Below are positions 33,751 to 58,599 of a stretch of DNA of 64,000 nt, piece after piece (within the stretch, counting starts at the first letter, position 1; every line of letters starts with the position of its first letter). This stretch comes from Escherichia phage vB_EcoM-Ro121c4YLVW. The notes beneath the pieces are model-generated. The model made no database searches. It was not told the origin of the DNA and saw only the letters and a list, made by a program, of their open reading frames with translations. The translations under genes were made by a program, and so were the position numbers. The DNA lies in sequence record NC_052654.1. One strand, 5' to 3'.

Positions 33751-34084
33751 TTTTCTCTCCTTCATAATCTTGAATTCTATCTAGCACCCATTGTATACGA
33801 TGTTTGTTTTTATGGCAAATATGTTTTTTATGTTCGAAGGTGTATTCCTCATAACCACCTTCATTAAACGGGAAATTGTAATCCAATCCTGCACCAATAA
33901 ACTGTGATTTCATCTCCTGTTGTAGACGAGGTAACAGTTCATCAGGATATGTTCCCTCTACATACTTAATCAAACATATGCACAAACCACTCGTTGTGTG
34001 ACCTTCTACCTCACCAGCAAGCCAAGCTTTGTAAAACTTCATTAGACGTAAACTGCTCAACGGAACATTTTTACTCTTTTGCAT
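33740..34084 (-). CDS. paralog-family protein A
   Basis: KFYKAWL...GLCICL...FPFN...RIQWVLDRI. Confidence 0.5.
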   Translation of the reverse strand: MQKSKNVPLSSLRLMKFYKAWLAGEVEGHTTSGLCICLIKYVEGTYPDELLPRLQQEMKSQFIGAGLDYNFPFNEGGYEEYTFEHKKHICHKNKHRIQWVLDRIQDYEGEKNDK

Positions 34085-34089
34085 GACAA

Positions 34090-35640
34090 TCTCCTCTCAT
34101 CGTTAGCCATCTTTCATGGCAATCATCAATCACCAACATCATACGATCAATCTTAGGGAATTACAATCGAATTATCATAGGGGATTCCTATCAATTATCC
34201 CATATATACCGATTATTTTTGACACCCCACTCTTGTATAAAAAGTAACCCAAAATATCTACGGGGAGAGATTATTTCGGGACACCCTGTTTCATAGCAAT
34301 CATGGCAAGAATATCTAATAGAATCAATATGATATGGCAAAAATCATGGCGCATACGTAAGAAGTGCTTAACGCGAATTTTCGGGCCGTCAGGTCCACGC
34401 AGCGACAATTCCCAAATATCATGCGAATGAGAATAATTATCATTCGTATTCAATGACTTATGCAAGGCTCATGCCAACATAGCGACAAGGTGGGCCACTT
34501 GATTATAAATCACACAAACACTTATTTATCAATGGTTTGGCAACTTCATCATATGACGGAACAATGTCAACTGATCCCGCTCATGACAAGCAGACTATTA
34601 TTTATATGAGAATGATTATTATTTAAACGTTTATTAACATATAAACTAAAATAAATCAAGAATTTTCTGATTTTATTTACGTTTAAGAGAAGGTGCTCAA
34701 CATATCGCTACGCGATAGTATTCGCCCCCAAAAGATTAGCCTTTATTTTCTTGTATGTTTATACACTGCGTGTACATCTATGTGCACACTATGCAACCTG
34801 TCGCTATTCGCTCATGTTGCTACGTGCAATTATTCATCTTGCTAATGATTTCATATTGTAACTATTACAATGACTATTGTTATTGCGCTAATGTTATGAT
34901 CTTGGTAATTACATATAATGCTAATAATAAGCCAGCGCAATAAGTGTAAGCGTCATTACGCTTGCAATTATTGCAAGCTACGCAGTAACAAGAAATAACC
35001 GTCACCGATGGTTATGATTGTTGGGGTGTAGTTGGCTTATTATTAGCTCGCTATGTGTCCGGCATAGCGTGCTAATGATGACTCTGTGAATGATTCGTTT
35101 TGTAATGATTTCATTCAGGCACTATTTTGCTAATAGTTATTATTTTAATGGTTTCGTTTGTTATTGTTCGTTAGTTGGTTGTTTTGTCGTGTTATCGTTA
35201 TCTTGCTTAGTATTCATCATGGTTTGATTGTTTGTCATTATCAATCATCTTGCTATTATTCCTTTGATTATGATTAGTTTGCTTATTGTTTTAGGTTGTT
35301 GGTTGGTTAGTTGTTGCGAACTATTATCAACATTATAGTTATGCACTTATATTGCATAGATAAACATGGATAGATGATAATGGTTATCATTGCACCAGAA
35401 AGGAGGTAAAAGGGTGTTTTTGATGGTTTGTTGTTGGTTGTTGATCGATTTTAACCGCTTTAAATGGCTCTCTAACAGCCTGTTACCCTGGGAGGTATGG
35501 TTATTCATTTAATGGTTGATTAGCTTGATACCACTATTTATTCAGTTTTGTTCTGTGTCGGTTTTCCATAGGCGGAATCTATCAACATTGTTCGGGCAAA
35601 AAGAAAGGGCGCTTGGTGCGCCCCTTGTTTTGTTGTCGAT
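34090..35640. other. about 1.5 kb non-coding region with strand-skewed composition, palindromes and Fur-box-like motifs
   Basis: No ATG ORF with RBS; T/G-rich top strand; palindrome at 34936-34975; motifs at 34421-34441 and 34601-34620. Confidence 0.5.
35606..35630. terminator. bidirectional terminator
   Basis: agggcgcttggtgcgccc hairpin flanked by A-run upstream and T-run downstream. Confidence 0.55.
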
Positions 35641-36059
35641 TATAACGCTTCATAGATTGAGTAGATCCGGTTTGCCAGGTCATTACGAAAGCGGAATTTT
35701 TCATCACGTTTAATCATCAGATCCTTAAAACCGCATTCTTTCAAGGCTTCATTAACTTTATGGCGGCAAACGTTCATATTATCCTGCGCGTCACCAATAA
35801 ACTTATTACTGTGATGCATTGCTTTGATCTCTTCCTCTAATACCAGGGCAACTACACGGACCGGATCAAGCTGATATGCGGTAACATCCATGCGGCATTG
35901 TAAACGGCTTTTAACATCGTTTACAGGATACACTGCAACCTCTTCCCCGTCAACGTTCACGATAACCAATTTACCATCGATTTCGAAGCCTTTGGCGGCG
36001 CTACCGTGACAAAAAGCGTTATCGAAGGAGTAAGCTGGATTATTTGATTTAATGTTCAT
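35640..36059 (-). CDS. hypothetical protein (first gene of small-gene array)
   Basis: ORF track 139 aa. Confidence 0.5.
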   Translation of the reverse strand: MNIKSNNPAYSFDNAFCHGSAAKGFEIDGKLVIVNVDGEEVAVYPVNDVKSRLQCRMDVTAYQLDPVRVVALVLEEEIKAMHHSNKFIGDAQDNMNVCRHKVNEALKECGFKDLMIKRDEKFRFRNDLANRIYSIYEAL

Positions 36060-36198
36060 GATGTTGTCCTTTGTTTCGTTTCGTTGTTTGCTGCCAGTAA
36101 GTTAAATATAATATAACGCCGATCCCCTGTCAATAGGGGATAGCGCATTATTTACATTTCTTTACGTTAAAGGGCGCTTAGTGCGCCCTTGTATAATC

Positions 36199-36567
36199 TT
36201 ACTTTGTGCTGTTGTAAACGTTATCGCGTTCAACCATCAGGGCAAGGCGGATCAGTTGATCAGTTGTATCGCTTAAGCTTTTAGGCCATGTTTTACTGTT
36301 CCAGCTATCAAGATTAGATTGAATATATGTATCAATGGCTTGATCCATGTTGTCAAACAAGTTTTCTTCTAAGCTCTCGGCTGTTTCACACTGGAAAGCA
36401 TTAGCCACACTATTAATCAGTAAGCAAGCCAGTAAATCAGCGTTACGCCAATTTTTACGGATAGTTTCATCTGTCAGATAACCAACGAGATTAACCTTTG
36501 CGCCAGTGGTGGACGTTGCGATCACTTCTTGCGCTTTTTCAACTGCTTTAATTGCTGATTTGCTCAT
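36199..36567 (-). CDS. hypothetical protein
   Basis: Start at ATG after AGAGGAAAATAAA; 122 aa. Confidence 0.45.
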   Translation of the reverse strand: MSKSAIKAVEKAQEVIATSTTGAKVNLVGYLTDETIRKNWRNADLLACLLINSVANAFQCETAESLEENLFDNMDQAIDTYIQSNLDSWNSKTWPKSLSDTTDQLIRLALMVERDNVYNSTK

Positions 36568-36819
36568 TTTATTTTCCTCTTTGTGGGCTTGCTGTATTGC
36601 TTGCCCTACGAGATAAATAATAATATAAGGGTGATCCGGTGTCAATAGGTAGAATTGTAAAGATTCGATAGTTTATCTCTTTGATGTTTTGTTGTTTGAT
36701 AGGTGTTAGCTATCAATATATAGCGGGGTCGTCCGGTGATTATCTTCCCTGTTGCCAGTGCCGCCCGTTCAATAAGCATAACAAAAAACAGGACAAAAAC
36801 AAGCCCTGTTTTGTAAAGA

Positions 36820-37023
36820 TTAGATGATCTGCATATCCTCCACGATAATTTCTAATTTCCAAACAAGATGATCTAAGCTCCCTGATAAAAATGATTCCGA
36901 TACATAACCGCCATCGGATACCGTAGCAAGGATCTCGCCATTTGCTTGCTCTTTGATTTGAACATCCAGGCGGTTAGCCTTTGCTTTATTCAGGACGGCG
37001 ATCAGGCGGTTAGCTGTAGTCAT
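36820..37023 (-). CDS. hypothetical small protein
   Basis: Start at ATG after GGAAGGAAA; upstream part of track ORF is the translated leader hairpin. Confidence 0.45.
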   Translation of the reverse strand: MTTANRLIAVLNKAKANRLDVQIKEQANGEILATVSDGGYVSESFLSGSLDHLVWKLEIIVEDMQII

Positions 37024-37040
37024 GGTGTTTCCTTCCAGTG

Positions 37041-37100
37041 GTGAGCGGCACCATTGCCGCCCTACAAAACACATCTTACACTATCCGGCACATTGTGCAA
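37041..37100 (-). promoter_or_regulatory. array promoter unit (TTGCAC-N16-TAAGAT, TAGGGCGG, hairpin GCGGCAATGGTGCCGC)
   Basis: Read on minus strand upstream of 36820-37023. Confidence 0.55.
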
Positions 37101-37106
37101 GCTATT

Positions 37107-37298
37107 TTAAATCTTATCGCCAATATAATCTGATCTGTTCTTCTCTGTCATGCGCTTTAATAATTCTTGCATATTGCTTATAGCTTGCAAGGTGTCTTCT
37201 TCCAGACTTGAATCAACATAATCAGGATCATTCTTCACCTTGCTATAGTTGTGATAGCGTAACGCTGCTAATACCTTTCTAACTTGTTCCACGTTCAT
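37107..37298 (-). CDS. hypothetical protein
   Basis: ORF track 63 aa. Confidence 0.4.
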   Translation of the reverse strand: MNVEQVRKVLAALRYHNYSKVKNDPDYVDSSLEEDTLQAISNMQELLKRMTEKNRSDYIGDKI

Positions 37299-37307
37299 AA
37301 TGTACCC

Positions 37308-37442
37308 TTAAAATAGTGTGCCGATGGAAGATAGCAGGTCACTAACAACTAAAACCAGATCTACTATCACATATCTAATCAGGAAGGGGATAAGCGCCAG
37401 CGTCGCTACTATGATCCCCATTGTGATGATCACCTTTCTCAT
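37308..37442 (-). CDS. 44-aa hydrophobic membrane peptide
   Basis: ATG 3 nt after upstream stop; no clear SD. Confidence 0.3.
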   Translation of the reverse strand: MRKVIITMGIIVATLALIPFLIRYVIVDLVLVVSDLLSSIGTLF

Positions 37443-37444
37443 CG

Positions 37445-37729
37445 TTAGCGGCTTACGTAGGCTTTACCGTTTACGGTCATCGGTATGGCTTCAAGGTCTG
37501 GATCTTCCTTAAGGTCGCGTGCAAGCTCACCGCAGCGGATACCCTCGAATCCGTGATATTCTGTTACACCGTCGTTAAATGTTTTAGCGGCAAGGCATAG
37601 GCGATAATTAACGCCGATCCGGTTTATTGCGTTGATATCGGTTAGCGTGATGGATTCTGGCAACTCATTAGCCAGTACAGGCGCGTTAATACCAACAACC
37701 AGGGCAACTACTGCGATCATCTTTTTCAT
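37445..37729 (-). CDS. secreted small protein (signal peptide)
   Basis: MKKMIAVVALVVGINAPVLA-NE; RBS AGGAAGAGGA. Confidence 0.5.
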   Translation of the reverse strand: MKKMIAVVALVVGINAPVLANELPESITLTDINAINRIGVNYRLCLAAKTFNDGVTEYHGFEGIRCGELARDLKEDPDLEAIPMTVNGKAYVSR

Positions 37730-37783
37730 GTGTCTATCCTCTTCCTATTGCGTTTAATGGGGCGTTACCGCCCCGCTTATGGT

Positions 37784-38020
37784 TTATTGATTGATGTTAT
37801 GATGAAAGTTATTTTCTTCAATAGCTTTTAAAATAAAAGCCGTGATCGCTTTCGTGTCTACTTGTTCGAACGTATCAGAATAAGCCCAATAATAATCATC
37901 CCCTACTTTCGGCGGGTAAACCTGGACAAGGAGATCGCCACCTGGTTGATCTATAAGCTCAACATGCAAGCCGGATGATTCAGCGGTTTTAACGGCGTTT
38001 AATACTGTTGCAATACTCAT
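37784..38020 (-). CDS. hypothetical protein
   Basis: ORF track 78 aa. Confidence 0.45.
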   Translation of the reverse strand: MSIATVLNAVKTAESSGLHVELIDQPGGDLLVQVYPPKVGDDYYWAYSDTFEQVDTKAITAFILKAIEENNFHHNINQ

Positions 38021-38064
38021 AATCTTTCCCTTTCTGATGTGGGGCGTTGCCGCCCCTTTGTTGA

Positions 38065-38364
38065 TTAGATCGCTGTTTCCAGTAGTTCGGCTAACGTCTT
38101 ACCGCCTGATAGTTGGTCTAACGTTTGCTCTTCTGGCAAGAAATTAGCTGATATTAATCCGACTTGATTTCCTTTGTGCCAATTAGCTTGACGGATGATT
38201 CCATCCTTTAAAGATTTTACCGCCATTGTGCAACCGTCGCCAAATGATTCATTTTTATGATCCATTACTTCATAAGCGCCCAGCTTGCTGCTGTTAGGCA
38301 CCATTAATGCGAATACATCACCAACAACCAGTTTTTCTACGGTAACAATAGCGATAGTTTCCAT
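38065..38364 (-). CDS. hypothetical protein
   Basis: ORF track 99 aa; RBS GAGGAAAG. Confidence 0.45.
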   Translation of the reverse strand: METIAIVTVEKLVVGDVFALMVPNSSKLGAYEVMDHKNESFGDGCTMAVKSLKDGIIRQANWHKGNQVGLISANFLPEEQTLDQLSGGKTLAELLETAI

Positions 38365-38382
38365 TTTACTTTCCTCATTATC

Positions 38383-38439
38383 GGCGGCACCATTGCCGCC
38401 CTACGTGGTAAATATTAGCACACTGGCGATCTGTGTCAA
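38383..38439 (-). promoter_or_regulatory. array promoter unit (TTGACA-N16-TAATAT, GTAGGGCGG, hairpin)
   Basis: ggcggcaccattgccgccctacgtggtaaatatta...tgtcaa on + strand. Confidence 0.6.
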
Positions 38440-38445
38440 TACTTT

Positions 38446-38832
38446 TTATTCAATATAAATCAAATTATCTTCACCAATGTAAGCCGACACGTTCGGCATA
38501 AACTTAGCTGCATTGGTTAGGCGGTTCGCCGTGTTAGTGGTGTATATTTCAGGGCGATCCCAAAAGCCTACGCCGTGACTGTTACGGGTAAAATGTAAAT
38601 CATTCCCGATCTGGTTGGCTGTTGCGCCGTCGCTCATTGCCTCAGAGATAGCGGCATTATTGGCATCACAAAACGCCGCCACGTCACGTATGATCCGCTG
38701 ATGGGCTTGATCTGAAAATTCATAATCAGTCATGTCATCTATAAAATTACCTTCATGATCCCTTGCGGATTCAGCAAAAATAAAGGCTTCTTTATAACCG
38801 TTGATGATTTCAATAATGATTTCTGTTTTCAT
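38446..38832 (-). CDS. hypothetical protein
   Basis: ORF track 128 aa. Confidence 0.45.
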   Translation of the reverse strand: MKTEIIIEIINGYKEAFIFAESARDHEGNFIDDMTDYEFSDQAHQRIIRDVAAFCDANNAAISEAMSDGATANQIGNDLHFTRNSHGVGFWDRPEIYTTNTANRLTNAAKFMPNVSAYIGEDNLIYIE

Positions 38833-39053
38833 GCTGTACGCTCGACAATAATAATGGTTTGCGGTATCTCGTTTTCTACTACTAATAAGGCTTTTTTCTG
38901 CGTGATAGATATTTTAACACGTTGTAAAGTAGCGGTAAAATCTTTCATTTCATTATGCGCGGATTTAGTGCAATGCCAGATCTCAGGCTTACCTATTTGC
39001 AAGCCGCGTAAAAATTCTGTTTTACCTGTCTTATTCGTGATCATTTGATTCAC
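38829..39053 (-). CDS. hypothetical protein
   Basis: ORF track 74 aa. Confidence 0.4.
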   Translation of the reverse strand: MNQMITNKTGKTEFLRGLQIGKPEIWHCTKSAHNEMKDFTATLQRVKISITQKKALLVVENEIPQTIIIVERTA

Positions 39054-39054
39054 C

Positions 39055-39159
39055 TTAACCGATACCGTGGGAAGATAGGATCATATTAGCCATAGTTGCA
39101 ACCACTCCAACCGATAACGCCAGGCCCACTATTACAACCGTGAAAATTTTCTCTAACAT
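39055..39159 (-). CDS. 34-aa hydrophobic membrane peptide
   Basis: Own promoter/hairpin unit upstream, RBS GAGGG; below ORF-track cutoff. Confidence 0.4.
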   Translation of the reverse strand: MLEKIFTVVIVGLALSVGVVATMANMILSSHGIG

Positions 39160-39426
39160 GATTCTACCCTCATTAATGGGCGTTGCCTTATTGCCCCGCC
39201 CTACGAAATACATTCTATCAGATAACAAATTATCGTCAAGATTTATTTTTTACTTCCCAAACGGAAAATTCGCTGCCTGTTGGGATCATCTTTTTAATCT
39301 TGTTTGCTGCCGCTACCAGGTCAACGGCTTGCACTGTAATAATATAACCAATTGTCGAGGCTGTTGCGTTGAAAGTTTTCATTATATTACCCTTTAATAC
39401 AGGCGGGATTAATCCCGCCTTGTTGA

Positions 39427-39597
39427 TTACTCTTCATCGTCGCCGTTATAGTATTCAATGCCATTTTCATCGGTTACGGTGATGTTAACGCCACCGATAG
39501 CAACACGATCACGGGCAAACGTCATGGCTTCATTTAAATCTTCAGACCAAAAAATATTGTGACCTTTGCGCGATACATAAAACATAGTCGGGATCAT
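39427..39597 (-). CDS. hypothetical small protein
   Basis: Start at ATG after AGAAGAGAAA; upstream part of track ORF is leader hairpin. Confidence 0.45.
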   Translation of the reverse strand: MIPTMFYVSRKGHNIFWSEDLNEAMTFARDRVAIGGVNITVTDENGIEYYNGDDEE

Positions 39598-39618
39598 GAT
39601 TTGTTTCTCTTCTGTTGT

Positions 39619-39681
39619 GAGCGGTGGACCATTCCGCCGCCCTATGTGGTAAACTTTACTACGTTGTTTGCGTGCTGTCAA
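39619..39681 (-). promoter_or_regulatory. array promoter unit (TTGACA-N17-TAAAGT, ATAGGGCGG, hairpin GGCGGAATGGTCCACCGC)
   Basis: Hairpin stem differs from other copies but stays self-complementary. Confidence 0.6.
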
Positions 39682-39682
39682 A

Positions 39683-39967
39683 TTATTTTTTAATGTTTTG
39701 CCCTACAAAATTAATCATTTCCTTAAGCTGTCTCTCTGTCATGATCGTACCTGGTAACTCTTCTTTAATTTCTTCCGGTAAATAAATATTACCGCGCCAG
39801 GTTAACAAACAACCGTTTTGATCTTCGCAGATAGAATAGGAAAACATCCACTCGCAATCATTTTCAAGCTCCCAAAAACACAAAAAGTCTTCTTTCCCTA
39901 AGTTTTCAACGGTTAAACATAATCCGCGACGTGCTGCATAATTAGTTAGGCTTTTTGTGATTTTCAT
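39683..39967 (-). CDS. hypothetical protein
   Basis: Start at internal ATG (MKITKS...), 94 aa. Confidence 0.45.
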   Translation of the reverse strand: MKITKSLTNYAARRGLCLTVENLGKEDFLCFWELENDCEWMFSYSICEDQNGCLLTWRGNIYLPEEIKEELPGTIMTERQLKEMINFVGQNIKK

Positions 39968-39986
39968 GATTTTTCTCTCTTCTTGT

Positions 39987-40044
39987 GAGCGGCACCATTG
40001 CCGCCCTACAAGATACATATTACCAGACTAAGCCGACTTGTCAA
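39987..40044 (-). promoter_or_regulatory. array promoter unit
   Basis: gagcggcaccattgccgccctacaagatacatatta...tgtcaa. Confidence 0.6.
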
Positions 40045-40165
40045 ACTATTTTTTCTTTTTCTTTGCTTCCAACCGTCTAAGGTTACGGCTTGACTTATTG
40101 CGCAAGGCGCTTAGATCGTCGTACCCTTTCCATGCTTGCATATCTTTCGGATTCATGTTATCCCC

Positions 40166-40327
40166 TTACTTGTTAGCCGGATTATATGCCAGGACCGCGC
40201 CGCTTGCTTTCACGCTTTCCGCTTCATAGTTGCGCAGATCGTTTTCTGTAAGGTTGAGCGCGATCACTTCCTCGATCTCAACGTCAGCGGCAAGGGCGAT
40301 CTCTTTGATAATGTCTGCTGTTTTCAT
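40166..40327 (-). CDS. hypothetical small protein
   Basis: Start at ATG after AAGGTG; 53 aa. Confidence 0.4.
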   Translation of the reverse strand: MKTADIIKEIALAADVEIEEVIALNLTENDLRNYEAESVKASGAVLAYNPANK

Positions 40328-40337
40328 AGTATGCACC

Positions 40338-40457
40338 TTATAAGATGATTGATAAGATAGTGACAACGAAAGCGATTATACTGATGGCAAATGTTATCTT
40401 TTTACCTTCGGATACTGCCGGATTTTTTGCCGTGTATTCTACTATGTACTTGCTCAT
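40338..40457 (-). CDS. 39-aa membrane peptide (C-terminal TM helix)
   Basis: Promoter unit upstream, RBS GAGAGGA; below ORF-track cutoff. Confidence 0.4.
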   Translation of the reverse strand: MSKYIVEYTAKNPAVSEGKKITFAISIIAFVVTILSIIL

Positions 40458-40480
40458 CGTGTAATCCTCTCATTTGCCTT

Positions 40481-40540
40481 GGGAACTATTCCCGCCGCCC
40501 TATGAATTAAATATACACTATCTCAAAAAGATTGCAAGCC
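40481..40540 (-). promoter_or_regulatory. array promoter unit (hairpin variant GGGAATAGTTCCC)
   Basis: gggaactattcccgccgccctatgaatt...tgcaag. Confidence 0.55.
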
Positions 40541-40555
40541 TTTTTCTGAATTATT

Positions 40556-40840
40556 TTATGCAGTAAACAAACCATCATTTACAACGGCGGCGATGATCTC
40601 CCGTGCCATTGATTCAGGGAAAGGGGCGCTATAGTCCTGGCTTGTCTCGTCGGTGTCAGTGATACAATGATAAGCTAACGAGTAAAAGCCTTTACTAACT
40701 GTTTTCAGTGAGATGATGATCACTCGGTCAAGCTTATTGGTGAATGTTGCCGTTAATGTGTTACCCTCCTGCGTCATATTGGACAAGTAAGCGGCATTAT
40801 TAATCAGGGAAAACATTAGCACGGTGTTAGCTTTACTCAT
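40556..40840 (-). CDS. hypothetical protein
   Basis: Start at internal ATG after GAGGATG; 94 aa. Confidence 0.45.
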   Translation of the reverse strand: MSKANTVLMFSLINNAAYLSNMTQEGNTLTATFTNKLDRVIIISLKTVSKGFYSLAYHCITDTDETSQDYSAPFPESMAREIIAAVVNDGLFTA

Positions 40841-40856
40841 GATTGCATCCTCAAAG

Positions 40857-40916
40857 GGGCGCGGCACCATTGCCGCCCTACACGATAACTATAACACAAT
40901 ATAAAACAGGATCAAC
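40857..40916 (-). promoter_or_regulatory. array promoter unit
   Basis: gcgcggcaccattgccgccctacacgat...gatcaa. Confidence 0.55.
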
Positions 40917-41124
40917 CTTTATTTTTCCACGGTGTCAGTTTGTTAATCATTGGTGATAAATAGCGTTTACCAACGTAAAACAGTACGCCAACTGATGCAA
41001 CGGCGGCGATCTCATGTAAGGAGGAAGGTCGCGCGGTGTCATAGTAGGTACCAATAATAGCAATAGCGGCTACTGCGGCAATGTCTGTAATAATTTTTTC
41101 TTGTTTTGTTGTGATAGTGGTCAT
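40912..41124 (-). CDS. small membrane protein (two hydrophobic segments)
   Basis: ORF track 70 aa. Confidence 0.45.
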   Translation of the reverse strand: MTTITTKQEKIITDIAAVAAIAIIGTYYDTARPSSLHEIAAVASVGVLFYVGKRYLSPMINKLTPWKNKG

Positions 41125-41145
41125 AATGTTTTTCTCTTTTATGTG

Positions 41146-41203
41146 GTCGGGAACTATTCCCGCCCTACGTGATACATCTTATCATACTTGGTTATGCTGT
41201 CAA
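41146..41203 (-). promoter_or_regulatory. array promoter unit (TTGACA-N16-TAAGAT)
   Basis: ggtcgggaactattcccgccctacgtgatacatctta...tgtcaa. Confidence 0.6.
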
Positions 41204-41209
41204 CCGTTT

Positions 41210-41395
41210 TTAAAGATATTTTATGCTAATGACGTTTTCAGGTTTAACCTTGTTGTGATGTGCATCAACATAGATCAAACCATCGTCAGAAAAGCCCAGG
41301 ATCACGCCCTGCGCGATAAAACCGTACGCATCACGGTAACGCACGGCTATTTTTAATGTTGCGTTGTAGGCTGTTTTAAGCTCGTTTAAAGTCAT
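41210..41395 (-). CDS. hypothetical protein
   Basis: ORF track 61 aa. Confidence 0.4.
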   Translation of the reverse strand: MTLNELKTAYNATLKIAVRYRDAYGFIAQGVILGFSDDGLIYVDAHHNKVKPENVISIKYL

Positions 41396-41450
41396 TTTTG
41401 TTTATCCTCTACATGTAAAAAGAAAGGGCGCTTGATGCGCCCTTGTTATG

Positions 41451-41597
41451 TTAATCCTCTAAATCCATCCAATTATATTTGTCACTCTTCCCGCGCTTTG
41501 TTTTATTGCGCTTGTCGCCTTTGCGGATCACTTCCTCGTTCCAGGCCTTGCGGATCTTGGAAGATTGAATTTTTTCTGCGCGATTAGATGTATTCAT
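41451..41597 (-). CDS. 48-aa basic protein
   Basis: Promoter/hairpin variant upstream, RBS GAGGAAACAAA; below ORF-track cutoff. Confidence 0.4.
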   Translation of the reverse strand: MNTSNRAEKIQSSKIRKAWNEEVIRKGDKRNKTKRGKSDKYNWMDLED

Positions 41598-41676
41598 TTT
41601 GTTTCCTCTTCATATGAGCGGCACCATTGCCGCTATATTGTTAATTTAAACTGTTTTGTAAAATTGTCAAGGTTTA

Positions 41677-42030
41677 TCATTCATAAGAGCAAGCAAGGAT
41701 CACGCCTGCAATATAAAGCCAATAATTTTCCCTTTCTCGTTGGATTTTATCATCGCTGCTATTCTCTTTAATGTATCCCCAGGATGTTAACAGGCGATCA
41801 ATTTCCCAATATTCGAAAGCGATATTGATATCTGATGGCAAGCCTTGTAACCATGATGCAAGTGCTTTAACAATACTATAATTAAAACGTGATTGGTTAT
41901 CAGGGTACCAGTACTCGGAATTAAAACGGCGCATCAATTCCGCGATCTTCTCTTTTTCGGTTGTAATACCGTAATCATTAAAATCGATAGCGGCAAGGAT
42001 GTACTCTTTAATTGCATTTTGTGCTTTCAT
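41677..42030 (-). CDS. hypothetical protein
   Basis: ORF track 117 aa. Confidence 0.5.
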   Translation of the reverse strand: MKAQNAIKEYILAAIDFNDYGITTEKEKIAELMRRFNSEYWYPDNQSRFNYSIVKALASWLQGLPSDINIAFEYWEIDRLLTSWGYIKENSSDDKIQRERENYWLYIAGVILACSYE

Positions 42031-42047
42031 GGTCTTTCTCTCTTTTT

Positions 42048-42106
42048 GAGCGGGAACTATTCCCGCCCTACGTGTAACAGTTTACTAAAAATTAAATCGG
42101 TGTCAA
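42048..42106 (-). promoter_or_regulatory. array promoter unit
   Basis: gagcgggaactattcccgccctacgtgtaac...tgtcaa. Confidence 0.6.
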
Positions 42107-42109
42107 GCT

Positions 42110-42331
42110 TTATTTTGTTACTACCATTTGGTACCCTGCTTCAATGTTAGTAAATACTGTTATTCCGTCCTGGCGTTCACTCATTAGCATACAAGGCGCT
42201 AACATCCTTTCTACTGCCTTGCACTCATTGTAAACGGCGGTTATATCTCCTGCGGCCTTGTCTTCTGTGGTGAATGTATCGTTTACGTAAACTTGACCAG
42301 CAACAACGGCGACAATAGCGAAAGTGATCAT
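42110..42331 (-). CDS. small protein with N-terminal hydrophobic segment
   Basis: Start at ATG (MITFAIVAVVAG...). Confidence 0.4.
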   Translation of the reverse strand: MITFAIVAVVAGQVYVNDTFTTEDKAAGDITAVYNECKAVERMLAPCMLMSERQDGITVFTNIEAGYQMVVTK

Positions 42332-42410
42332 AATGTTTTTTCTCTTTATGTGTTTCGTTTCAATTAGTTGATAATACAGCAATTTGCAGATTAGTCTTTA
42401 GCAATTCATG

Positions 42411-42629
42411 CTATTTACTCACAACAATATCGAAAACAAATTTTTCTTTGTTGTCTAAGCTCACGTATCCGATTCGACCACGCAATCCGAGAGTAGTGCC
42501 GTATTCGTAACCATCAAGACCTTTAACCTTCCAATCCATGCCCATTAAAACCGCATTATATTTCTGACCAACTACAAAAGCGCCACCAGTTGATTCAATG
42601 CAAACAACTTTAATTTTACGGATTGCCAT
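42411..42629 (-). CDS. hypothetical protein
   Basis: ORF track 72 aa; promoter TTGACT-N17-TATAAT with palindrome flanking -10. Confidence 0.45.
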   Translation of the reverse strand: MAIRKIKVVCIESTGGAFVVGQKYNAVLMGMDWKVKGLDGYEYGTTLGLRGRIGYVSLDNKEKFVFDIVVSK

Positions 42630-42707
42630 TTTCTTTCTCTCTTTCTGGTGATTGGTTTCTCTTCTCTATAGCGCCCATTATAAGGCGCTATAACGAAAAG
42701 TCAACGA

Positions 42708-42875
42708 TTATTTTTTAAGGCTTAAAGTACCTAACTTGTCAGCATGACGTAGACCAGGGAAGATCCATTTTCCTGATTCATCTTTTACAGGGGCTTTAAG
42801 CGTAGCGCCCAGGTTGGCGGCGTTAACTTTACGTGCAACGTTGCGAGCGGCTTCACGGGTAGCGAAAGTGATCAT
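42708..42875 (-). CDS. 55-aa hypothetical protein
   Basis: Promoter unit upstream, RBS AGAGGAAAA; below ORF-track cutoff. Confidence 0.4.
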   Translation of the reverse strand: MITFATREAARNVARKVNAANLGATLKAPVKDESGKWIFPGLRHADKLGTLSLKK

Positions 42876-42966
42876 AATATTTTCCTCTTCTCTTTGTTAG
42901 GCGGTGGACCATTCCGCCGCCTTGATGTAATACAGTTTACTTTATTTTTGCAGTATTGCAAGCGTT

Positions 42967-43179
42967 TTATGAAATAATCGTCAAAGTAAAATTGTAATCA
43001 CCTGATTGGTACAATACTTTATCACCGAACGTTCCAACACGTTTAACATTGCAATATATACCCATAACACTTTTTACATCTTTGATATTCTTCACGCCTG
43101 TAATATCTTTATTAAAATGATCGTGATCAGAAAATAAAACTTGACTTGCATTTTTTAACAGTGTGCGGATATTAGCCAT
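42967..43179 (-). CDS. hypothetical protein
   Basis: ORF track 70 aa. Confidence 0.45.
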   Translation of the reverse strand: MANIRTLLKNASQVLFSDHDHFNKDITGVKNIKDVKSVMGIYCNVKRVGTFGDKVLYQSGDYNFTLTIIS

Positions 43180-43212
43180 CGTGATAATCTCTCTTCTGTT
43201 GTGAGCGGCACT

Positions 43213-43270
43213 ATTGCCGCCCTACGTAATACAGTTTACTCTTTTTCTTTCCCGTGTCAACAATCTTTTT
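43213..43270 (-). promoter_or_regulatory. array promoter unit
   Basis: gagcggcactattgccgccctacgtaatac...tgtcaa. Confidence 0.6.
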
Positions 43271-43497
43271 CAGATTAATTCATCCAGGCATAACAGGCGA
43301 TCAACGTTGAGATCGGTCAGGCTGATGGTTGGCACCTGGTAGGATTCGATGTACTCAACGCTTGCATATTCCCCAAAATTAGCAATAGCCCACTTATTCA
43401 AGATCTCACATACATCATTAATCTTTTTGTTTGTTACAACTGCAATAACCTGGGAAGTGCCAACGGTGCCGGATACGCGAACAATATTGATAGCCAT
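43270..43497 (-). CDS. hypothetical protein
   Basis: ORF track 75 aa. Confidence 0.45.
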   Translation of the reverse strand: MAINIVRVSGTVGTSQVIAVVTNKKINDVCEILNKWAIANFGEYASVEYIESYQVPTISLTDLNVDRLLCLDELI

Positions 43498-43519
43498 AAT
43501 CTTTAATCTCTCTGCTGTT

Positions 43520-43579
43520 GGCGGGAAACCACTTCCCGCCCTATGTGATACATCTTACACTAATTTTAAACGTTGTCAA
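43520..43579 (-). promoter_or_regulatory. array promoter unit (hairpin variant GGCGGGAAGTGGTTTCCCGCC)
   Basis: ggcgggaaaccacttcccgccctatgtgatacatctta...tgtcaa. Confidence 0.6.
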
Positions 43580-43588
43580 CTGTTTTTA

Positions 43589-43828
43589 TTACATTCCAAC
43601 CATCGCGGCGCGGATCGCTGTAGTGCTATACTTGAAACCGTCTGGAGTTTTATCTTGTCCAGTTTGTTCCAGGAATAACATCATATCACGGGCAGCATCA
43701 TTACGATTAGTATTAGCGGCGATAAATTCTTTCGCCAACCGATATAATGATTCGTCGTTATTAATCCAAAGGCTTACATTCCAGTGAGTTTTGTTTTTGT
43801 GACCGTTGTAAGTTTTAGTAATAGCCAT
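43589..43828 (-). CDS. hypothetical protein
   Basis: ORF track 79 aa. Confidence 0.45.
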   Translation of the reverse strand: MAITKTYNGHKNKTHWNVSLWINNDESLYRLAKEFIAANTNRNDAARDMMLFLEQTGQDKTPDGFKYSTTAIRAAMVGM

Positions 43829-43849
43829 GATGATAATCTCTCTTTGAAT

Positions 43850-43911
43850 GAGGCGGGAACTATTCCCGCTCTCTATGTAATACAGTTTACTCTTTTTATT
43901 CGTGCTGTCAA
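43850..43911 (-). promoter_or_regulatory. array promoter unit (degenerate TAGAGAGCGG)
   Basis: gaggcgggaactattcccgctctctatgtaatac...tgtcaa. Confidence 0.5.
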
Positions 43912-43917
43912 TGCTTT

Positions 43918-44283
43918 TTATAAATCTTTTTTACGTTTTACATCGCTTGCATGACTGTATACAGTGATCCCATTGTCACGGCAAAAACGGGAAAGATACG
44001 CGCCGCGTGAAAATTCCTTGCCCTCAAGGTTGATAACCTTGCTAAATTCTTCCAGGGCGACGGTATCAAAATGATCACCATAGCCATATTGAAACGGAAC
44101 GTTAACCACCTCGATCAGTTTACCGCCGATCTCAACGTCAACCATTAAAGAAAAATATGTGTTACCGTAGGACTGTTGAAACCAGCGACGGGCGCTAATA
44201 TGCACCGCCTCAATGCTGGATAATTCAATTTTAGCCGTGTTAGCCAGGGTAGCATAAGCGGAAACATTGATATTAATAGCCAT
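43918..44283 (-). CDS. hypothetical protein
   Basis: ORF track 121 aa. Confidence 0.5.
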   Translation of the reverse strand: MAININVSAYATLANTAKIELSSIEAVHISARRWFQQSYGNTYFSLMVDVEIGGKLIEVVNVPFQYGYGDHFDTVALEEFSKVINLEGKEFSRGAYLSRFCRDNGITVYSHASDVKRKKDL

Positions 44284-44380
44284 GGTGTCACTCTCTCTTT
44301 TTGGTTAGTGGGAAGTATTCCCGATAAAAGTTATTATGCTTATACTATCACTCATTGTCAATAGTATAAGACTAAAACTT

Positions 44381-44560
44381 TTAACGATAATCATTATAGG
44401 CTTTATTGACCTGGCGAATGTAACATTCGAAAGCAAGATCAATGTATTCGTATTCACGCACATAATCACCATAGGTCACTACATACATTTTTAAAGTTTC
44501 CTCATAAGCCAGGAGGATCGAATCTAAACCTATAATCTCAGTTTTTGCAATGATAGCCAT
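44381..44560 (-). CDS. 59-aa hypothetical protein
   Basis: Promoter unit upstream; below ORF-track cutoff. Confidence 0.4.
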   Translation of the reverse strand: MAIIAKTEIIGLDSILLAYEETLKMYVVTYGDYVREYEYIDLAFECYIRQVNKAYNDYR

Positions 44561-44580
44561 GATGTTAACCTTTTATTGTT

Positions 44581-44637
44581 GGCGGCACCATTGCCGCCCT
44601 ACGTGATAAACTATACCAGAAGTTTAAACAGTGTCAA
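44581..44637 (-). promoter_or_regulatory. array promoter unit
   Basis: ggcggcaccattgccgccctacgtgataaacta...tgtcaa. Confidence 0.6.
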
Positions 44638-44643
44638 CCGTTT

Positions 44644-45006
44644 TTATTCGTAAATTTTACCGCTTTCGGCCCATACCATAACGCGGCGCATACTATCCCA
44701 AGTGTTTTGATCCAGGTTTAAGCCGTGCAACTCTTCGGTACTTCCCAGACCAGGTACCGCTTTGTTGTAAGTCGCATATAAGCGCCCTTGATACTCATAC
44801 GCCAGAGTAAGATCCTTTTGAATCATCTTTTTAAGCATAGCATTAAGCATCATATTAGCGGCATGTTGATCACGTTTTAGCGGTAACATGTCAATAAGGG
44901 CGCGATAAGCTGAAACATGAATATCAACCGTTTCACGTGGTAAATTTTTCATATCATTGCGGAAAGATACCAGATTAAACATGATAGTATTGATTTGCTT
45001 GCTCAT
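44644..45006 (-). CDS. hypothetical protein
   Basis: ORF track 120 aa. Confidence 0.5.
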   Translation of the reverse strand: MSKQINTIMFNLVSFRNDMKNLPRETVDIHVSAYRALIDMLPLKRDQHAANMMLNAMLKKMIQKDLTLAYEYQGRLYATYNKAVPGLGSTEELHGLNLDQNTWDSMRRVMVWAESGKIYE

Positions 45007-45027
45007 TGTGTTACCCTTTTTTGTTTT

Positions 45028-45088
45028 GGCTGGGAAGTATTCCGCCGCCCTATGTGATACATCTTATCAGATTAAAAAACGTTGTCAA
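45028..45088 (-). promoter_or_regulatory. array promoter unit
   Basis: ggctgggaagtattccgccgccctatgtgatacatctta...tgtcaa. Confidence 0.6.
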
Positions 45089-45096
45089 GAATATTT

Positions 45097-45192
45097 TTAG
45101 AAAATAATAGCCGCTACTACAATCCAAAATGGAACGGCTAGAATGATAGCGTTAATCGTTCCAACCGTCAAGCTATTTTCTTTATTAATCAT
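45097..45192 (-). CDS. 31-aa hydrophobic membrane peptide
   Basis: Promoter unit upstream; below ORF-track cutoff. Confidence 0.35.
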   Translation of the reverse strand: MINKENSLTVGTINAIILAVPFWIVVAAIIF

Positions 45193-45219
45193 TGTAAGCC
45201 TCTTGCATAATTTCACTAT

Positions 45220-45278
45220 GAGCGGCACCATTGCCGCCCTACGTGGTAAATATTATGCCAGTGGCGGCGATATGTCAA
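45220..45278 (-). promoter_or_regulatory. array promoter unit
   Basis: gagcggcaccattgccgccctacgtggtaaatatta...tgtcaa. Confidence 0.6.
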
Positions 45279-45841
45279 AGACTATTTTCAAAGTTTTCTA
45301 GTGCGATCCTTTTTTCTTCCTCTGTCGGCTGATAATCAGGAAAAGCATCAACACACAACAACGGCGGGATCTCTTCGTACTCTTCCTCTTCCGTTGTCTC
45401 CTCGTCTTCCTCCTGGGCTATGGCTGCAATTTTGGCTAATTTTCTTTCAGCTTGAATCAATTTACCATCAAGTACGTTTTTTGCCATGTTGTAAGCGGTC
45501 CAGGTGATGCGCTTACTTTCCAGGGCCTGATCGAGCGCCGCTATCTTGCTGGGGTATTCATCCAGGACACGAAAAGCCGGATCAACTTTGTACAAAGGAT
45601 TATCTTTCGCGCCGTCGCTCGCATCTTCCGCACTGGATAAATCAGCGTTACCATTTGCCAGCCAGCCAGGGCGCACATAACGCGCTTTTACGTTGCCGTT
45701 ACTACGTGCTAATCTGTTACCTATTTGCTCACCACTATATCCCGTGGATTCATCGATAAGATGATCGGGAATGATGCGCGGATCATCTGCTTCATGTTTT
45801 ACCCAAGACTGGATCACATATTCGCGGCCCATATTAACCAC
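45275..45841 (-). CDS. hypothetical protein with acidic C-terminal region
   Basis: ORF track 188 aa. Confidence 0.5.
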   Translation of the reverse strand: MVNMGREYVIQSWVKHEADDPRIIPDHLIDESTGYSGEQIGNRLARSNGNVKARYVRPGWLANGNADLSSAEDASDGAKDNPLYKVDPAFRVLDEYPSKIAALDQALESKRITWTAYNMAKNVLDGKLIQAERKLAKIAAIAQEEDEETTEEEEYEEIPPLLCVDAFPDYQPTEEEKRIALENFENSL

Positions 45842-46091
45842 CTTTTTTCAACAATTGGCATACTTTAAAAAGACTTGCTGAATCCTTGCAAGGGTAGAAA
45901 GATGTACGATAATCACGTACGCCAACCTTGCGGATCTCGATGTTCTCGCATGTTGTTTGATCAAAGATATTTATTTCATCACGCCCCCTTATATAAACAT
46001 AGTGGGGATGTATTAACGCATATTTTGCTAATCTGTAAAAAGCGTTATCTTTGAACGCGATCACGTGACCTTTTAATTTGATGTAAAACAT
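45834..46091 (-). CDS. hypothetical protein
   Basis: ORF track 85 aa; promoter unit at 46109-46164. Confidence 0.45.
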   Translation of the reverse strand: MFYIKLKGHVIAFKDNAFYRLAKYALIHPHYVYIRGRDEINIFDQTTCENIEIRKVGVRDYRTSFYPCKDSASLFKVCQLLKKGG

Positions 46092-46167
46092 TCTACCACC
46101 TTACAAATAGCGGGAACTATTCCCGCTTTATGTAACATATTAACAAATTATTCGTTAATGTCAAGCC

Positions 46168-46440
46168 TTAAAGCAAAAACGCTACATCTTGCGCTTTTAG
46201 TGTAGTATCAACCATTTTCGGGCTTTTATAATCAACAAAGCGCGCGGTTTTTTCAATAGCGAAACCGAGATAATCTTGCTTGTTGAAATTACATTCTTTC
46301 TTAAATGTTTCCCGTGCAATAGTGATCGCTGCGTCCAGGGATAAACGCCCGTCAATATTGATATTAGCGAAAGATCCGCCACCGCTCATAGGTTTACCAG
46401 TGGTGCCAGCTACGATCATTGTTGCGCTATATGATGCCAT
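46168..46440 (-). CDS. hypothetical protein
   Basis: ORF track 90 aa. Confidence 0.45.
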   Translation of the reverse strand: MASYSATMIVAGTTGKPMSGGGSFANINIDGRLSLDAAITIARETFKKECNFNKQDYLGFAIEKTARFVDYKSPKMVDTTLKAQDVAFLL

Positions 46441-46464
46441 GATGATAATCTCTCTTCTGTTGTG

Positions 46465-46525
46465 AGCGGTGGACCATTCCGCCGCCCTATGTGATACATC
46501 TTATCAGGTTGTTGTTTGTTGTCAA
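46465..46525 (-). promoter_or_regulatory. array promoter unit
   Basis: gagcggtggaccattccgccgccctatgtgatacatctta...tgtcaa. Confidence 0.6.
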
Positions 46526-46531
46526 TACTTT

Positions 46532-46729
46532 TTATTCTATTCCTGCAATTTGATTAACGCGCTTGCATTTTGTAGCGTGCTGGTCTTCTGTAATGACTCC
46601 CATTTCTAACAGGGAATCAATGAAAGATAAAACCGTTTCATGATCATCCTGGGGGTGACTGAACTCAGTAAAACCGTTTACCACTACGTTGATTTGTCCA
46701 GCTTTCGCCACAATGTGCAATGTTGCCAT
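46532..46729 (-). CDS. hypothetical small protein
   Basis: Start at internal ATG (MATLHIVAK...). Confidence 0.45.
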   Translation of the reverse strand: MATLHIVAKAGQINVVVNGFTEFSHPQDDHETVLSFIDSLLEMGVITEDQHATKCKRVNQIAGIE

Positions 46730-46748
46730 GATTTTAACTCCAAATAAT

Positions 46749-46807
46749 GAGCGGCACCATTGCCGCCCTACGTGGTAAATATTATGCCGCCACCTGGCGA
46801 ACGTCAA
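46749..46807 (-). promoter_or_regulatory. array promoter unit (last copy)
   Basis: gagcggcaccattgccgccctacgtggtaaatatta...cgtcaa. Confidence 0.6.
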
Positions 46808-46916
46808 TCACTTTTTCAATCTTTTTTATTTTCTTTTTGCTTGCTATATATAAAAGAAAGGGCTATCATCTTTCTACCGCGCCAACCAGGGCGCACATCA
46901 AAGAAAGGGCGATACC

Positions 46917-47154: not shown

Positions 47155-47183
47155 TTGACAAGCCCAGGGATCGGGCTTATACT
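47155..47183 (+). promoter_or_regulatory. sigma70-type promoter with no ORF downstream
   Basis: TTGACA-N17-TATACT; palindromic spacer. Confidence 0.5.
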
Positions 47184-47290: not shown

Positions 47291-47537
47291 TTTGTAAAGA
47301 AATGTAAAGATAAAATAATCGCTTGCTTTCCTGGCTGGATCTGTTATTCTTATTACATGGCGAGGGGACACGGGAGCGCGAGACAAACACCACCCCTGCG
47401 CGTCATTCTCTAAATGAGAATGATTATCATTTACCTTATCAAATAAGAATCAATCTCATTTATAAACCTAAATGCGAATCATTATCATTTGCATTTCCAT
47501 ATGAGAACTCTTCTCATTCCCATCTGCATAAATTTTT

Positions 47538-47740
47538 GTAAACTTTAAATTTTGCTTTTGTACTTTCATTTTTGTAAAAGCAAAAAAACTTTAAATACTG
47601 TGGGCGCGCAAAATTTTTAAAATTTTCCTTGACTTTTGAGTTTTGTTTTGTATCTGACATTTTAAGATAATTTTCCTAAACTTTAAATTTTGGTTTTCAA
47701 CTTTCACTTTTGTAAATTCTTAAAAAGTTTAAATAATTTG
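47538..47740. repeat. two about 63-bp direct repeats rich in A-tracts plus short TTTGAGATAA repeats (iteron-like)
   Basis: Copies at about 47538-47600 and 47677-47740. Confidence 0.55.
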
Positions 47741-47958
47741 AGGGATTTTTGAGATAATGGATAGTGGGAATTTGAGATAACCTTTAATCTTATTGGCAGA
47801 CCTTCAGGAAGCCACTTAGATCGAATCCTAGCAATGCAAACTGAAAAAGACAAGTGTTTGTATAGGACAAAATAATAGGCTCTCTACGGTGCTGTAGGAG
47901 CCTTATTTCTGTGCTACAAAGTGACACCTTTGTTCTAAAAATGAAAAAAGTTAAAATA

Positions 47959-58586: not shown

Positions 58587-58599
58587 AGGGGGAGTGAGT

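Follow-up and report, generated by a model that had tools for sequence, protein, structure and literature searches.

What is to be made of a phage locus in which small, apparently unrelated genes follow one another behind what looks like one and the same promoter and leader hairpin, and what could such a repeated element do? The question is raised by Escherichia phage vB_EcoM-Ro121c4YLVW (record NC_052654.1), of which a stretch of 64,000 nucleotides (nt), here called the window, was analyzed. The phage is a Phapecoctavirus of the subfamily Stephanstirmvirinae, an E. coli myovirus of about 150 kb belonging to the wider rV5-like group. Its array region is 95-98% identical to those of other Phapecoctavirus genomes (tuntematon, Mt1B1_P17, Ro121lw and others), where annotation records about 35 hypothetical proteins. 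The feature is real and highly non-random. The reading favored here, with a probability of roughly 0.6, is that the array is a hypervariable early-gene region built from a portable module of about 82 base pairs (bp), in which a hairpin at the 5' end protects or insulates the mRNA, and in which the repeats serve as crossover points.

A composite unit in 22 copies

The core octamer TAGGGCGG occurs in 16 exact copies in the window, all on the minus strand between 37057 and 46770, as compared to 0.61 copies expected from shuffled sequence, with a maximum of 4. At six further positions (46131, 44326, 43875, 42925, 41636 and 36608) the 8-mer is damaged and the promoter and hairpin are retained, which brings the total to 22 composite units. 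A covariance model built from these 22 units gives them 44-78 bits, scores which they owe to its construction; the informative part is the empty gap below, since nothing else in the window exceeds 16.5 bits, so that the composite unit is confined to 36578-46823. The first-pass annotation had described a near-identical promoter and hairpin repeat in 16 copies plus about six degenerate ones, and had proposed a rescan with a motif model; the repeat, its order of elements in each copy and both counts are all confirmed. Also correct was its remark that the region is richer in guanine and cytosine (GC) than the rest of the window: the array, at 41.1%, is the most GC-rich segment, no other of the same size exceeding 39.6%, and the excess sits in the genes, the units themselves being at 39%. 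Its statement that nearly every gene lies behind a unit was too broad, as the unit directly precedes 22 genes out of 36. Searches of the whole window found no match to Rfam 15 at gathering score, and no tRNAs.

Each unit fills the gap between two genes. Read on the minus strand, every copy presents an A-rich upstream (UP) tract, a -35 hexamer that is TTGACA or a one-off variant, a spacer of 16-17 bp, a -10 hexamer of the form TAnnnT (TAAGAT, TAATAT or TAAACT type), seven bases that are commonly GTATCAC, a purine, TAGGGCGG or its damaged form, the hairpin, a ribosome-binding site (RBS) and an ATG. In 103 distinct copies from three genera, the -35, -10 and UP-tract columns carry 1.1-2 bits each, and the 5' arm of the hairpin (TAGGGCGG) together with the discriminator GTATCAC carries 1.3-2 bits per column, while the 3' arm and the inner stem are variable. 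The unit also reaches into coding sequence on both sides. The stop codon of the upstream gene stands a median of 6 nt before the -35 hexamer and sometimes overlaps it, so that the UP tract is encoded in Lys/Asn-rich C-termini; many downstream genes open with ATGGCTAT (Met-Ala-Ile), and the repeat therefore extends into the first codons. Many cassette proteins thus display a Met-Ala-Ile/Asn N-terminus and a C-terminal Lys/Asn-rich tail encoding the UP A-tract, and it is through this extension into coding sequence that the regulatory repeats constrain protein termini. The array and its units, all on the minus strand, are as follows (aa, amino acids).

36060-46830, minus strand: whole array (10.7 kb), 36 small leftward genes of 31-185 aa, 22 of them directly behind a composite promoter/leader-hairpin unit
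46741-46823, minus strand: Unit 1, exact TAGGGCGG, hairpin GGGCGGCA-ATGG-TGCCGCTC; gene 46532-46729, 65 aa
46458-46541, minus strand: Unit 2, exact core, hairpin GGGCGGCGGA-ATGG-TCCACCGCTC; gene 46168-46440, 90 aa
46101-46180, minus strand: Unit 3, degenerate core AAAGCGGG, hairpin GCGGGAA-TAG-TTCCCGC; genes 45834-46091 (85 aa) and, coupled, 45275-45832 (185 aa)
45212-45294, minus strand: Unit 4, exact core; gene 45097-45192, 31-aa membrane peptide
45021-45104, minus strand: Unit 5, exact core, weakened hairpin (-7.8 kcal/mol); gene 44644-45006, 120 aa
44572-44653, minus strand: Unit 6, exact core, best model score (78 bits); gene 44381-44560, 59 aa
44299-44377, minus strand: Unit 7, degenerate, hairpin GGGAA-TAC-TTCCC only; gene 43918-44283, 121 aa
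43844-43927, minus strand: Unit 8, degenerate core TAGAGAGCGGG; gene 43589-43828, 79 aa, DUF7249
43512-43595, minus strand: Unit 9, exact core, hairpin GGCGGGAA-GTGGT-TTCCCGCC; gene 43270-43497, 75 aa
43195-43276, minus strand: Unit 10, exact core; gene 42967-43179, 70 aa
42893-42977, minus strand: Unit 11, degenerate core TCAAGGCGG, -35 TTGCAA; gene 42708-42875, 55 aa
42041-42122, minus strand: Unit 12, exact core, hairpin GGGCGGGAA-TAG-TTCCCGCTC; gene 41677-42030, 117 aa
41608-41686, minus strand: Unit 13, degenerate core ATAGCGGC; gene 41451-41597, 48 aa
41138-41219, minus strand: Unit 14, exact core; gene 40912-41124, 70 aa, membrane
40851-40931, minus strand: Unit 15, exact core, -35 TTGATC; gene 40556-40840, 94 aa
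40470-40553, minus strand: Unit 16, exact core, -35 TTGCAA, weak hairpin; genes 40338-40457, 40166-40327 and 40046-40156
39979-40060, minus strand: Unit 17, exact core; gene 39683-39967, 94 aa
39613-39697, minus strand: Unit 18, exact core; gene 39427-39597, 56 aa
39172-39255, minus strand: Unit 19, exact core, hairpin GGGCG..GC/GC..CGCCC; genes 39055-39159, 38829-39044 and 38446-38832
38374-38455, minus strand: Unit 20, exact core; gene 38065-38364, 99 aa
37035-37116, minus strand: Unit 21, exact core, -35 TTGCAC; gene 36820-37023, 67 aa
36578-36661, minus strand: Unit 22, degenerate core TAGGGCAAGC, a chimera; gene 36199-36567, 122 aa

The 14 genes that do not directly follow a unit are translationally coupled, or stand behind hairpin-only spacers or behind two promoters of different design. 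When 30 array proteins were compared to PHROG families, 29 found a match, with no top family common to two genes; the one without a match is a 31-aa product (g5), and among these 30 none of the matches is to a family of known function except for one labeled 'membrane protein'. DUF7249 is the sole Pfam domain recognized among the array proteins tested, and PADLOC returned nothing meaningful for them, with a single sub-threshold match. Since the families are distinct and nearly all lack an assigned function, the array genes are real, unrelated and orphan, in agreement with the unrelated small open reading frames of the first-pass annotation. These matches gave no lead toward the host-takeover or anti-defense genes which that annotation expected such a locus to gather.

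A hairpin at the predicted 5' end of the message

The placing of the hairpin relative to the promoter is central to any interpretation. In all 22 units the GGGCGG core starts at a fixed distance, 10-11 nt past the -10 hexamer, and it is for this reason that the hairpin is taken to form the 5' end of the unit's own predicted transcript. Promoter geometry predicts initiation at the conserved pyrimidine-purine step located 7-8 nt past the -10, which would yield an RNA whose 5' end is (A/G)UAGGGCGG and whose stem begins at +3/+4, that is, 3-4 nt from the predicted start; in several G-starting units the first two bases are also paired, so that pairing begins at +1. A purine-rich Shine-Dalgarno sequence and the ATG lie 8-26 nt past the hairpin in all 22 units, and the RBS is left free.

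All window units fold into a hairpin with a GC stem of 8-10 bp, most of them at -14 to -15 kcal/mol. The window holds no fewer than seven stem designs, such as GGGCGGCA/TGCCGCTC, GGGCGGCGGA/TCCACCGCTC, GGGCGGGAA/TTCCCGCTC, GGCGGGAA/TTCCCGCC and GGGCG..GC/GC..CGCCC. When relatives are included, 78 distinct leaders have a mean free energy of -14.2 kcal/mol and a mean z-score of -3.7, and in 38 distinct hairpins about 97% of the pairs are canonical, C-G to G-C swaps included. Stable folding is a property of these leaders in particular: those behind array promoters have a mean of -12.3 kcal/mol, as compared to -2.4 for leaders behind other strong sigma70-like promoters of the window (p=6e-5). Furthermore, in 57 of 78 leaders the sense strand folds more stably than the antisense strand because of a recurrent G.U pair (GGGCGG/CCGCTC), a bias which suggests that selection acts on the transcript and not on duplex DNA.

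Covariation analysis is affected by the unequal length of the stems. In a model-guided alignment the covariation score is 0.20, against 0.09-0.10 in shuffles (none of 500 reaching it), a comparison that overstates independence because many of the copies are recent duplicates. In the 103-sequence alignment the score drops to 0.08 or less when the pairing partner is slid, and in the 22-unit alignment a register slid by +3 equals the score of the true one. As stem lengths differ, the outer helix is still misplaced in model-guided alignments, with 61-80% of cells paired, and both MAFFT alone and RNAalifold mis-register stems of unequal length; for this reason, reliance was placed on per-sequence folds and on a tally anchored at the apex.

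These observations suggest a mechanism in which the module probably both drives and stabilizes early messages, by analogy with known 5' stabilizers. Host sigma70 RNA polymerase would initiate at the near-consensus promoter, at the purine before TAGGGCGG, and the transcript would fold from +3/+4 into the GC hairpin. RNase E and RppH need single-stranded 5' ends, hence the stabilizing effect of 5' structures (PMC3997798). With almost no single-stranded 5' end left, the hairpin would be expected to keep out both RppH and the 5'-end sensor of RNase E, and short early mRNAs would consequently be stabilized and standardized. The same hairpin could also protect fragments of transcripts that read through from upstream units, with the RBS remaining free.

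A different role would be that of promoter-early stem-loops (PeSLs), in which the hairpin acts mainly as a terminator, as an attenuator or as a 3'-end barrier against transcription from the upstream unit, isolating each cassette. The other promoters, hairpins and terminators of the region bear on this possibility.

42677-42704, minus strand: promoter of different design (TTGACT-16-TATAAT), hairpin AGCGCC/GGCGCT across the -10; genes 42411-42629 and 42110-42331
36105-36133, minus strand: promoter without leader hairpin (TTGACA-17-TATATT), CCCC/GGGG hairpin around the -35; gene 35640-36059
47155-47183, plus strand: strong promoter with a GC hairpin inside the spacer, PeSL geometry
39401-39420, minus strand: hairpin-only spacer, no promoter, before gene 39236-39382
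38041-38056, minus strand: hairpin-only spacer GGGGCGGCAACGCCCC, before gene 37784-38020
37758-37775, minus strand: hairpin-only spacer CGGGGCGGTAACGCCCCA, before genes 37445-37729, 37308-37421 and 37107-37298
41424-41444, minus strand: canonical intrinsic terminator (GC stem, then TCTTTTT), inside the array
36785-36812, minus strand: intrinsic terminator, after gene 36820-37023
35604-35626: terminator with a clear T-run that closes the region

In phage RB49, stem-loops of the form G(n)-loop-C(n), which have no obvious U-tract, reduced lacZ read-through by as much as rrnB T1 did (PMC2839356), and the three hairpin-only spacers are cases of hairpins used without promoters. The classical PeSL geometry is seen, alongside the 22 leader-hairpin units, at the first three promoters listed above, and one GenBank record tags the site of the unit as a terminator. 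A hairpin located downstream of its own -10 and start, however, would abort its own transcripts unless it acted only on polymerases arriving from afar. Moreover, only one of the 22 leader hairpins is followed by a T-rich tail, and a weak one; the other 21 lack the combination of GC stem and immediate U-tract by which intrinsic terminators are recognized, whereas the three true terminators of the region, which stand at operon ends, all have clear T-runs. PeSL stem-loops, unlike these hairpins, lie within or upstream of the promoter. Attenuation as the main role is hence rather unlikely.

Database records offer yet another reading. In the GenBank entry of phage phAPEC8 (NC_020079), the sigma70 part of the unit is tagged 'host dependent promoter (MEME)', and the hairpin core GTAGGGCGGCAATGGTGCCG, exactly that 20-mer, is tagged 'putative promoter determined with PHIRE', as if GTAGGGCGGCAATGGTGCCG were itself a phage-specific promoter. 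PHIRE, however, reports only over-represented 20-mers, and this one always lies 8 nt past a sigma70 -10 close to the consensus, with an RBS 8-26 nt further on, and varies by compensatory changes as a stem would. In addition, rV5-like phages have been described as lacking an RNA polymerase of their own (PMC7344957, PMC3606486), which leaves the proposal scarcely credible. BoxA/boxB-like antitermination, sigma-dependent pausing, CsrA or Hfq binding and N4-type hairpin promoters were considered and set aside as too weak, for mismatch of motif or for lack of the required polymerase.

The uneven conservation of the unit evokes the question of a trans-acting partner. The 5' arm and the discriminator are near-invariant, in contrast to the variable inner stem and 3' arm, and a factor that switches the whole early regulon could bind to GTATCAC-R-TAGGGCGG and the hairpin. 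It might be an RNA-binding protein or nuclease of phage or host, or a repressor that binds DNA at +1 and shuts expression off. In its favor, AAU(G/A)GU is a frequent loop sequence, the unit is almost exclusive to one class of genes, and the leader has been kept in three genera of two subfamilies. Yet no candidate factor has been identified, the loops are far from invariant (15 loop sequences among 38 hairpins), dyad symmetry is lacking in the conserved DNA segment itself, and conservation of the 5' arm could equally be explained by gene conversion at a crossover hot spot; such a switch is accordingly judged quite unlikely. The related proposal that (A/G)UAGGGCGG and its hairpin form a regulon-wide recognition handle for a dedicated phage or host factor, beyond a passive stabilizer, is likewise unlikely, if slightly less so. 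Such a factor might be a protector against phage-induced decay of host mRNA, or a nuclease or repressor timed to end expression of the early class. Were it true, conservation across Stephanstirmvirinae and Vequintavirinae would reflect that interaction, and each genome would have about 20 orphan early genes under the common control of one 25-nt RNA tag, which travels with the exchanged cassettes. It should be considered that the stabilizing, attenuating and regulator-binding roles are not mutually exclusive.

Cassette turnover and crossover points

The second part of the favored reading, that of a module at which genes are exchanged, relies on comparison with nine relatives. Chained pairwise alignments reveal about 20 distinct insertions, deletions or replacements of single or few genes. 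After merging, 18 of 42 breakpoints lie in units (19% expected, p=4e-4) and 26 of 42 in spacers or at gene edges (29% expected, p=1e-5), figures that are upper bounds because the ends of BLAST blocks extend into the shared repeats. The first-pass annotation had suggested that cassette presence or absence be compared among relatives with an eye to breakpoints inside the repeats, and such breakpoints, as well as chimeric units, are indeed found.

Unit 22 is the clearest case: it joins the promoter half of an upstream unit of tuntematon to the hairpin/RBS half of the downstream one, with the switch inside CGTAGGGC, and the window lacks at this site the 77-aa gene that separates the two units in six relatives. 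Where the window has Unit 20 alone (38374-38455), two units with an additional gene are found in SKA64 and ZCKP1, the crossover falling inside an identical hairpin core of 21-32 bp. The Unit 6 cassette (44287-44553) is absent from anhysbys, ZCKP1, SKA64 and ECO340P2, where the join is at the shared CATCATGGCTAT, and the Unit 21 cassette is absent from tuntematon. Other events involve hairpins of different types: gene 37784-38020 is absent from ZCKP1, with the junction in the hairpins 38041-38056 and 37758-37775 (37774/38041, two hairpin-only spacers), and another event joins two terminator-like hairpins (35628/36169). The first cassette behind the promoter at 42677-42704, gene 42411-42629, is missing in four relatives.

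Within units, hairpins of 5 types are combined with one and the same promoter-proximal module, and promoters of 18 types with a single hairpin type. Re-assortment of promoter and hairpin remains suggestive only, because a strict four-gamete test between the two modules gave no quartet at fine type definitions. Recombination between units in direct repeat deletes, inserts or swaps single-gene cassettes, and may re-assort promoter/hairpin halves, with the invariant TAGGGCGG core as a frequent crossover point.

Whether this requires a dedicated system is a separate matter. The array is made up of single-gene cassettes with hairpin-forming repeats at their borders, two clean crossovers map to the conserved core or within it, and promoter and hairpin halves appear re-assorted, all of which could suggest that the repeat is the substrate of a site- or structure-specific recombinase, in an integron-like platform. 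Other crossovers, however, are located within genes, in terminator hairpins, in the UP tract or at the RBS/ATG, and as they fall at several positions, ordinary recombination between short repeats fits better than a site-specific system. No integrase-like gene is annotated beside the array in the nine relatives. The core of integrons is GTTRRRY, and the core here, GTAGGGC, is unlike it. A dedicated recombination site is therefore very improbable.

Several points weigh against the favored reading of a protective and exchangeable module. A purely structural role would not require the 5' arm and discriminator to be conserved much above the 3' arm. A structure-blind alignment of 20 diverse leaders (MAFFT with RNAalifold) recovered only 4 pairs, and the presence of recent duplicates, as said above, makes shuffle-based covariation statistics look more independent than they are. 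The searched literature yielded no transcript data for this phage group, and that the hairpin is 5'-terminal is predicted from the geometry of the promoter; the stabilizing role is proposed by analogy with ompA and papA only. Regarding exchange, 16 of the 42 breakpoints are inside genes, and the share attributed to units is inflated by BLAST blocks that run into the repeats.

Some further observations concern the surroundings of the units. GC-rich hairpins without a promoter or U-tract stand between co-oriented genes at 39401-39420, 38041-38056, 37758-37775 and 36170-36195; two pairs of them are deletion junctions in relatives, and the T-rich runs that follow them on the opposite strand could stop antisense transcription. 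Gene 41210-41395 (61 aa) has a good RBS and lies directly after the strong terminator 41424-41444, with no recognizable promoter. At the head of the array, the AT-rich non-coding region 47400-47750 carries three to four CTAAATGAGAATGATTATCATTT-like repeats spaced by 29 bp, one of which (47416-47434) is within 3 mismatches of the E. coli Fur-box consensus, as well as two 72-nt repeats (47531-47602 and 47669-47740), where relatives annotate a repeat_region; control of genes by iron is one function this region might have, and replication initiation at an origin with iterons another. A stretch of about 1.6 kb immediately past the downstream end of the array (~34040-35640) has no annotated gene in tuntematon, Mt1B1_P17, phiWec179 and SKA64.

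Distribution and comparison with known systems

The model finds 23 units in the array of tuntematon, with similar counts for eight more Phapecoctavirus genomes; the Justusliebigvirus phage inny has 15, and an 18-kb stretch of the Vequintavirus FV3 has 5. The leader is thereby retained across three genera of two subfamilies (Stephanstirmvirinae and Vequintavirinae), and divergent cores such as TAAGGCGGG, AAAGGCGGG and ATAGGCGGG still open a hairpin at the same place. The rest of the tuntematon genome (87.5 kb) holds one further unit only, before a TerC-like gene. Tuntematon also encodes a 'nucleotide pyrophosphohydrolase' (109167-109892) and a tRNA nucleotidyltransferase/poly(A) polymerase-like protein (58230-58823), both with possible links to 5'- and 3'-end metabolism of RNA that would make protection by a 5' hairpin meaningful.

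In a pattern scan of IMG/VR, true units were encountered only on rV5-like contigs of 137-153 kb. About 40 matches in one family of ~40-kb contigs have TAGGGCGG without a hairpin, near the chance number for a 17-base pattern, and one match is the 5' end of a tRNA; these were rejected. In unrelated contigs, too, a sigma70-like promoter stands before GTAGGGCGG and a hairpin rich in GC (-10 to -17 kcal/mol), with two tandem copies on a 278-kb contig; since the search pattern forced the 8-mer, these matches may be due to chance, though the hairpins exceed expectation. Two matches to the Twister-P5 ribozyme above gathering score on one contig (7707-7775 and 8685-8741) are unrelated to the units.

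The motif has been noticed before. Repeated early promoters with sigma70 and UP elements were reported in the small-gene region of rV5 (PMC3606486), and in Certrevirus CB7 the promoter consensus AAAA(N3)TGTTGAC(N19)TATAAT is reported for 13 sites in such a region (PMC7344957). These reports and the phAPEC8 record share the phage group, the genomic region and the promoter consensus with the present work, the PHIRE 20-mer being the hairpin core described here; they differ in that the promoter alone is treated there, or the hairpin is mislabeled as a second promoter or terminator. In the literature searched on Phapecoctavirus, phi92 and rV5 phages, only promoter lists were found, with promoter, leader hairpin and RBS not described as one unit, nor was any description of its role in cassette exchange found. 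The present reading offers a single consistent interpretation for a motif that public records treat incompatibly, as host promoter together with a 'PHIRE promoter', as a terminator, or not at all, and would allow the annotation of start sites and early genes in more than 100 genomes of therapeutic-candidate phages of E. coli, Klebsiella and Salmonella. The unit is also a compact natural insulated expression part (UP, promoter, 5' hairpin, RBS), and marks natural cassette boundaries that could be useful for phage engineering and for the choice of orphan genes to be screened for host-takeover or anti-defense activity.

Three known systems merit comparison. Integron attC arrays also consist of tandem single-gene cassettes with hairpin-forming repeats in between and high turnover; here, by contrast, each cassette has its own promoter, no integrase is annotated beside the array in the nine relatives, and junctions fall at several positions. 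The 5'-terminal stabilizer hairpins of the E. coli mRNAs ompA and papA (Emory, Bouvet and Belasco 1992, reviewed in PMC3997798) likewise place a stable hairpin a few nt from the 5' end, which is a predicted one here, followed by an accessible RBS, with an expected block of RppH and RNase E. The difference is that the array has 22 copies of its element, whose effect would be similar, each of them joined to a promoter as a standard part.

PeSLs, known in the T4-like phages RB49/phi1, PST and nt-1, carry a stem-loop that acts as a terminator and is placed over the -10, between the -10 and the -35, or a short way upstream of the promoter (Arbiol et al. 2010, PMC2839356; Comeau et al. 2014, PMC4122927); detectable excised mini-circles also belong to the picture of a PeSL. 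The resemblance proposed by the first-pass annotation holds for the composite architecture: both are repeats of ~100 bp with an AT-rich tract, a sigma70 promoter, a stem-loop, a Shine-Dalgarno sequence and an ATG, both cluster in a hyperplastic region filled with orphan genes, and in both systems relatives differ by insertion, deletion or replacement of cassettes with junctions in the repeats. It fails for the stem-loop, which here lies at a fixed distance downstream of the predicted start, opens with the invariant 8-mer TAGGGCGG and, in all but one of the 22 units, has no terminator-like tail; the implied T4-type setting does not apply either, the lineage being rV5-like. As the defining geometry and the lineage both differ, the array is best filed as a system that would work like PeSLs in genome plasticity without being one of them. 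Modular shuffling of promoters and stem-loops is thereby extended from T4-like phages to unrelated large virulent phages, which suggests that it could be a general route of accessory-gene turnover in such phages.

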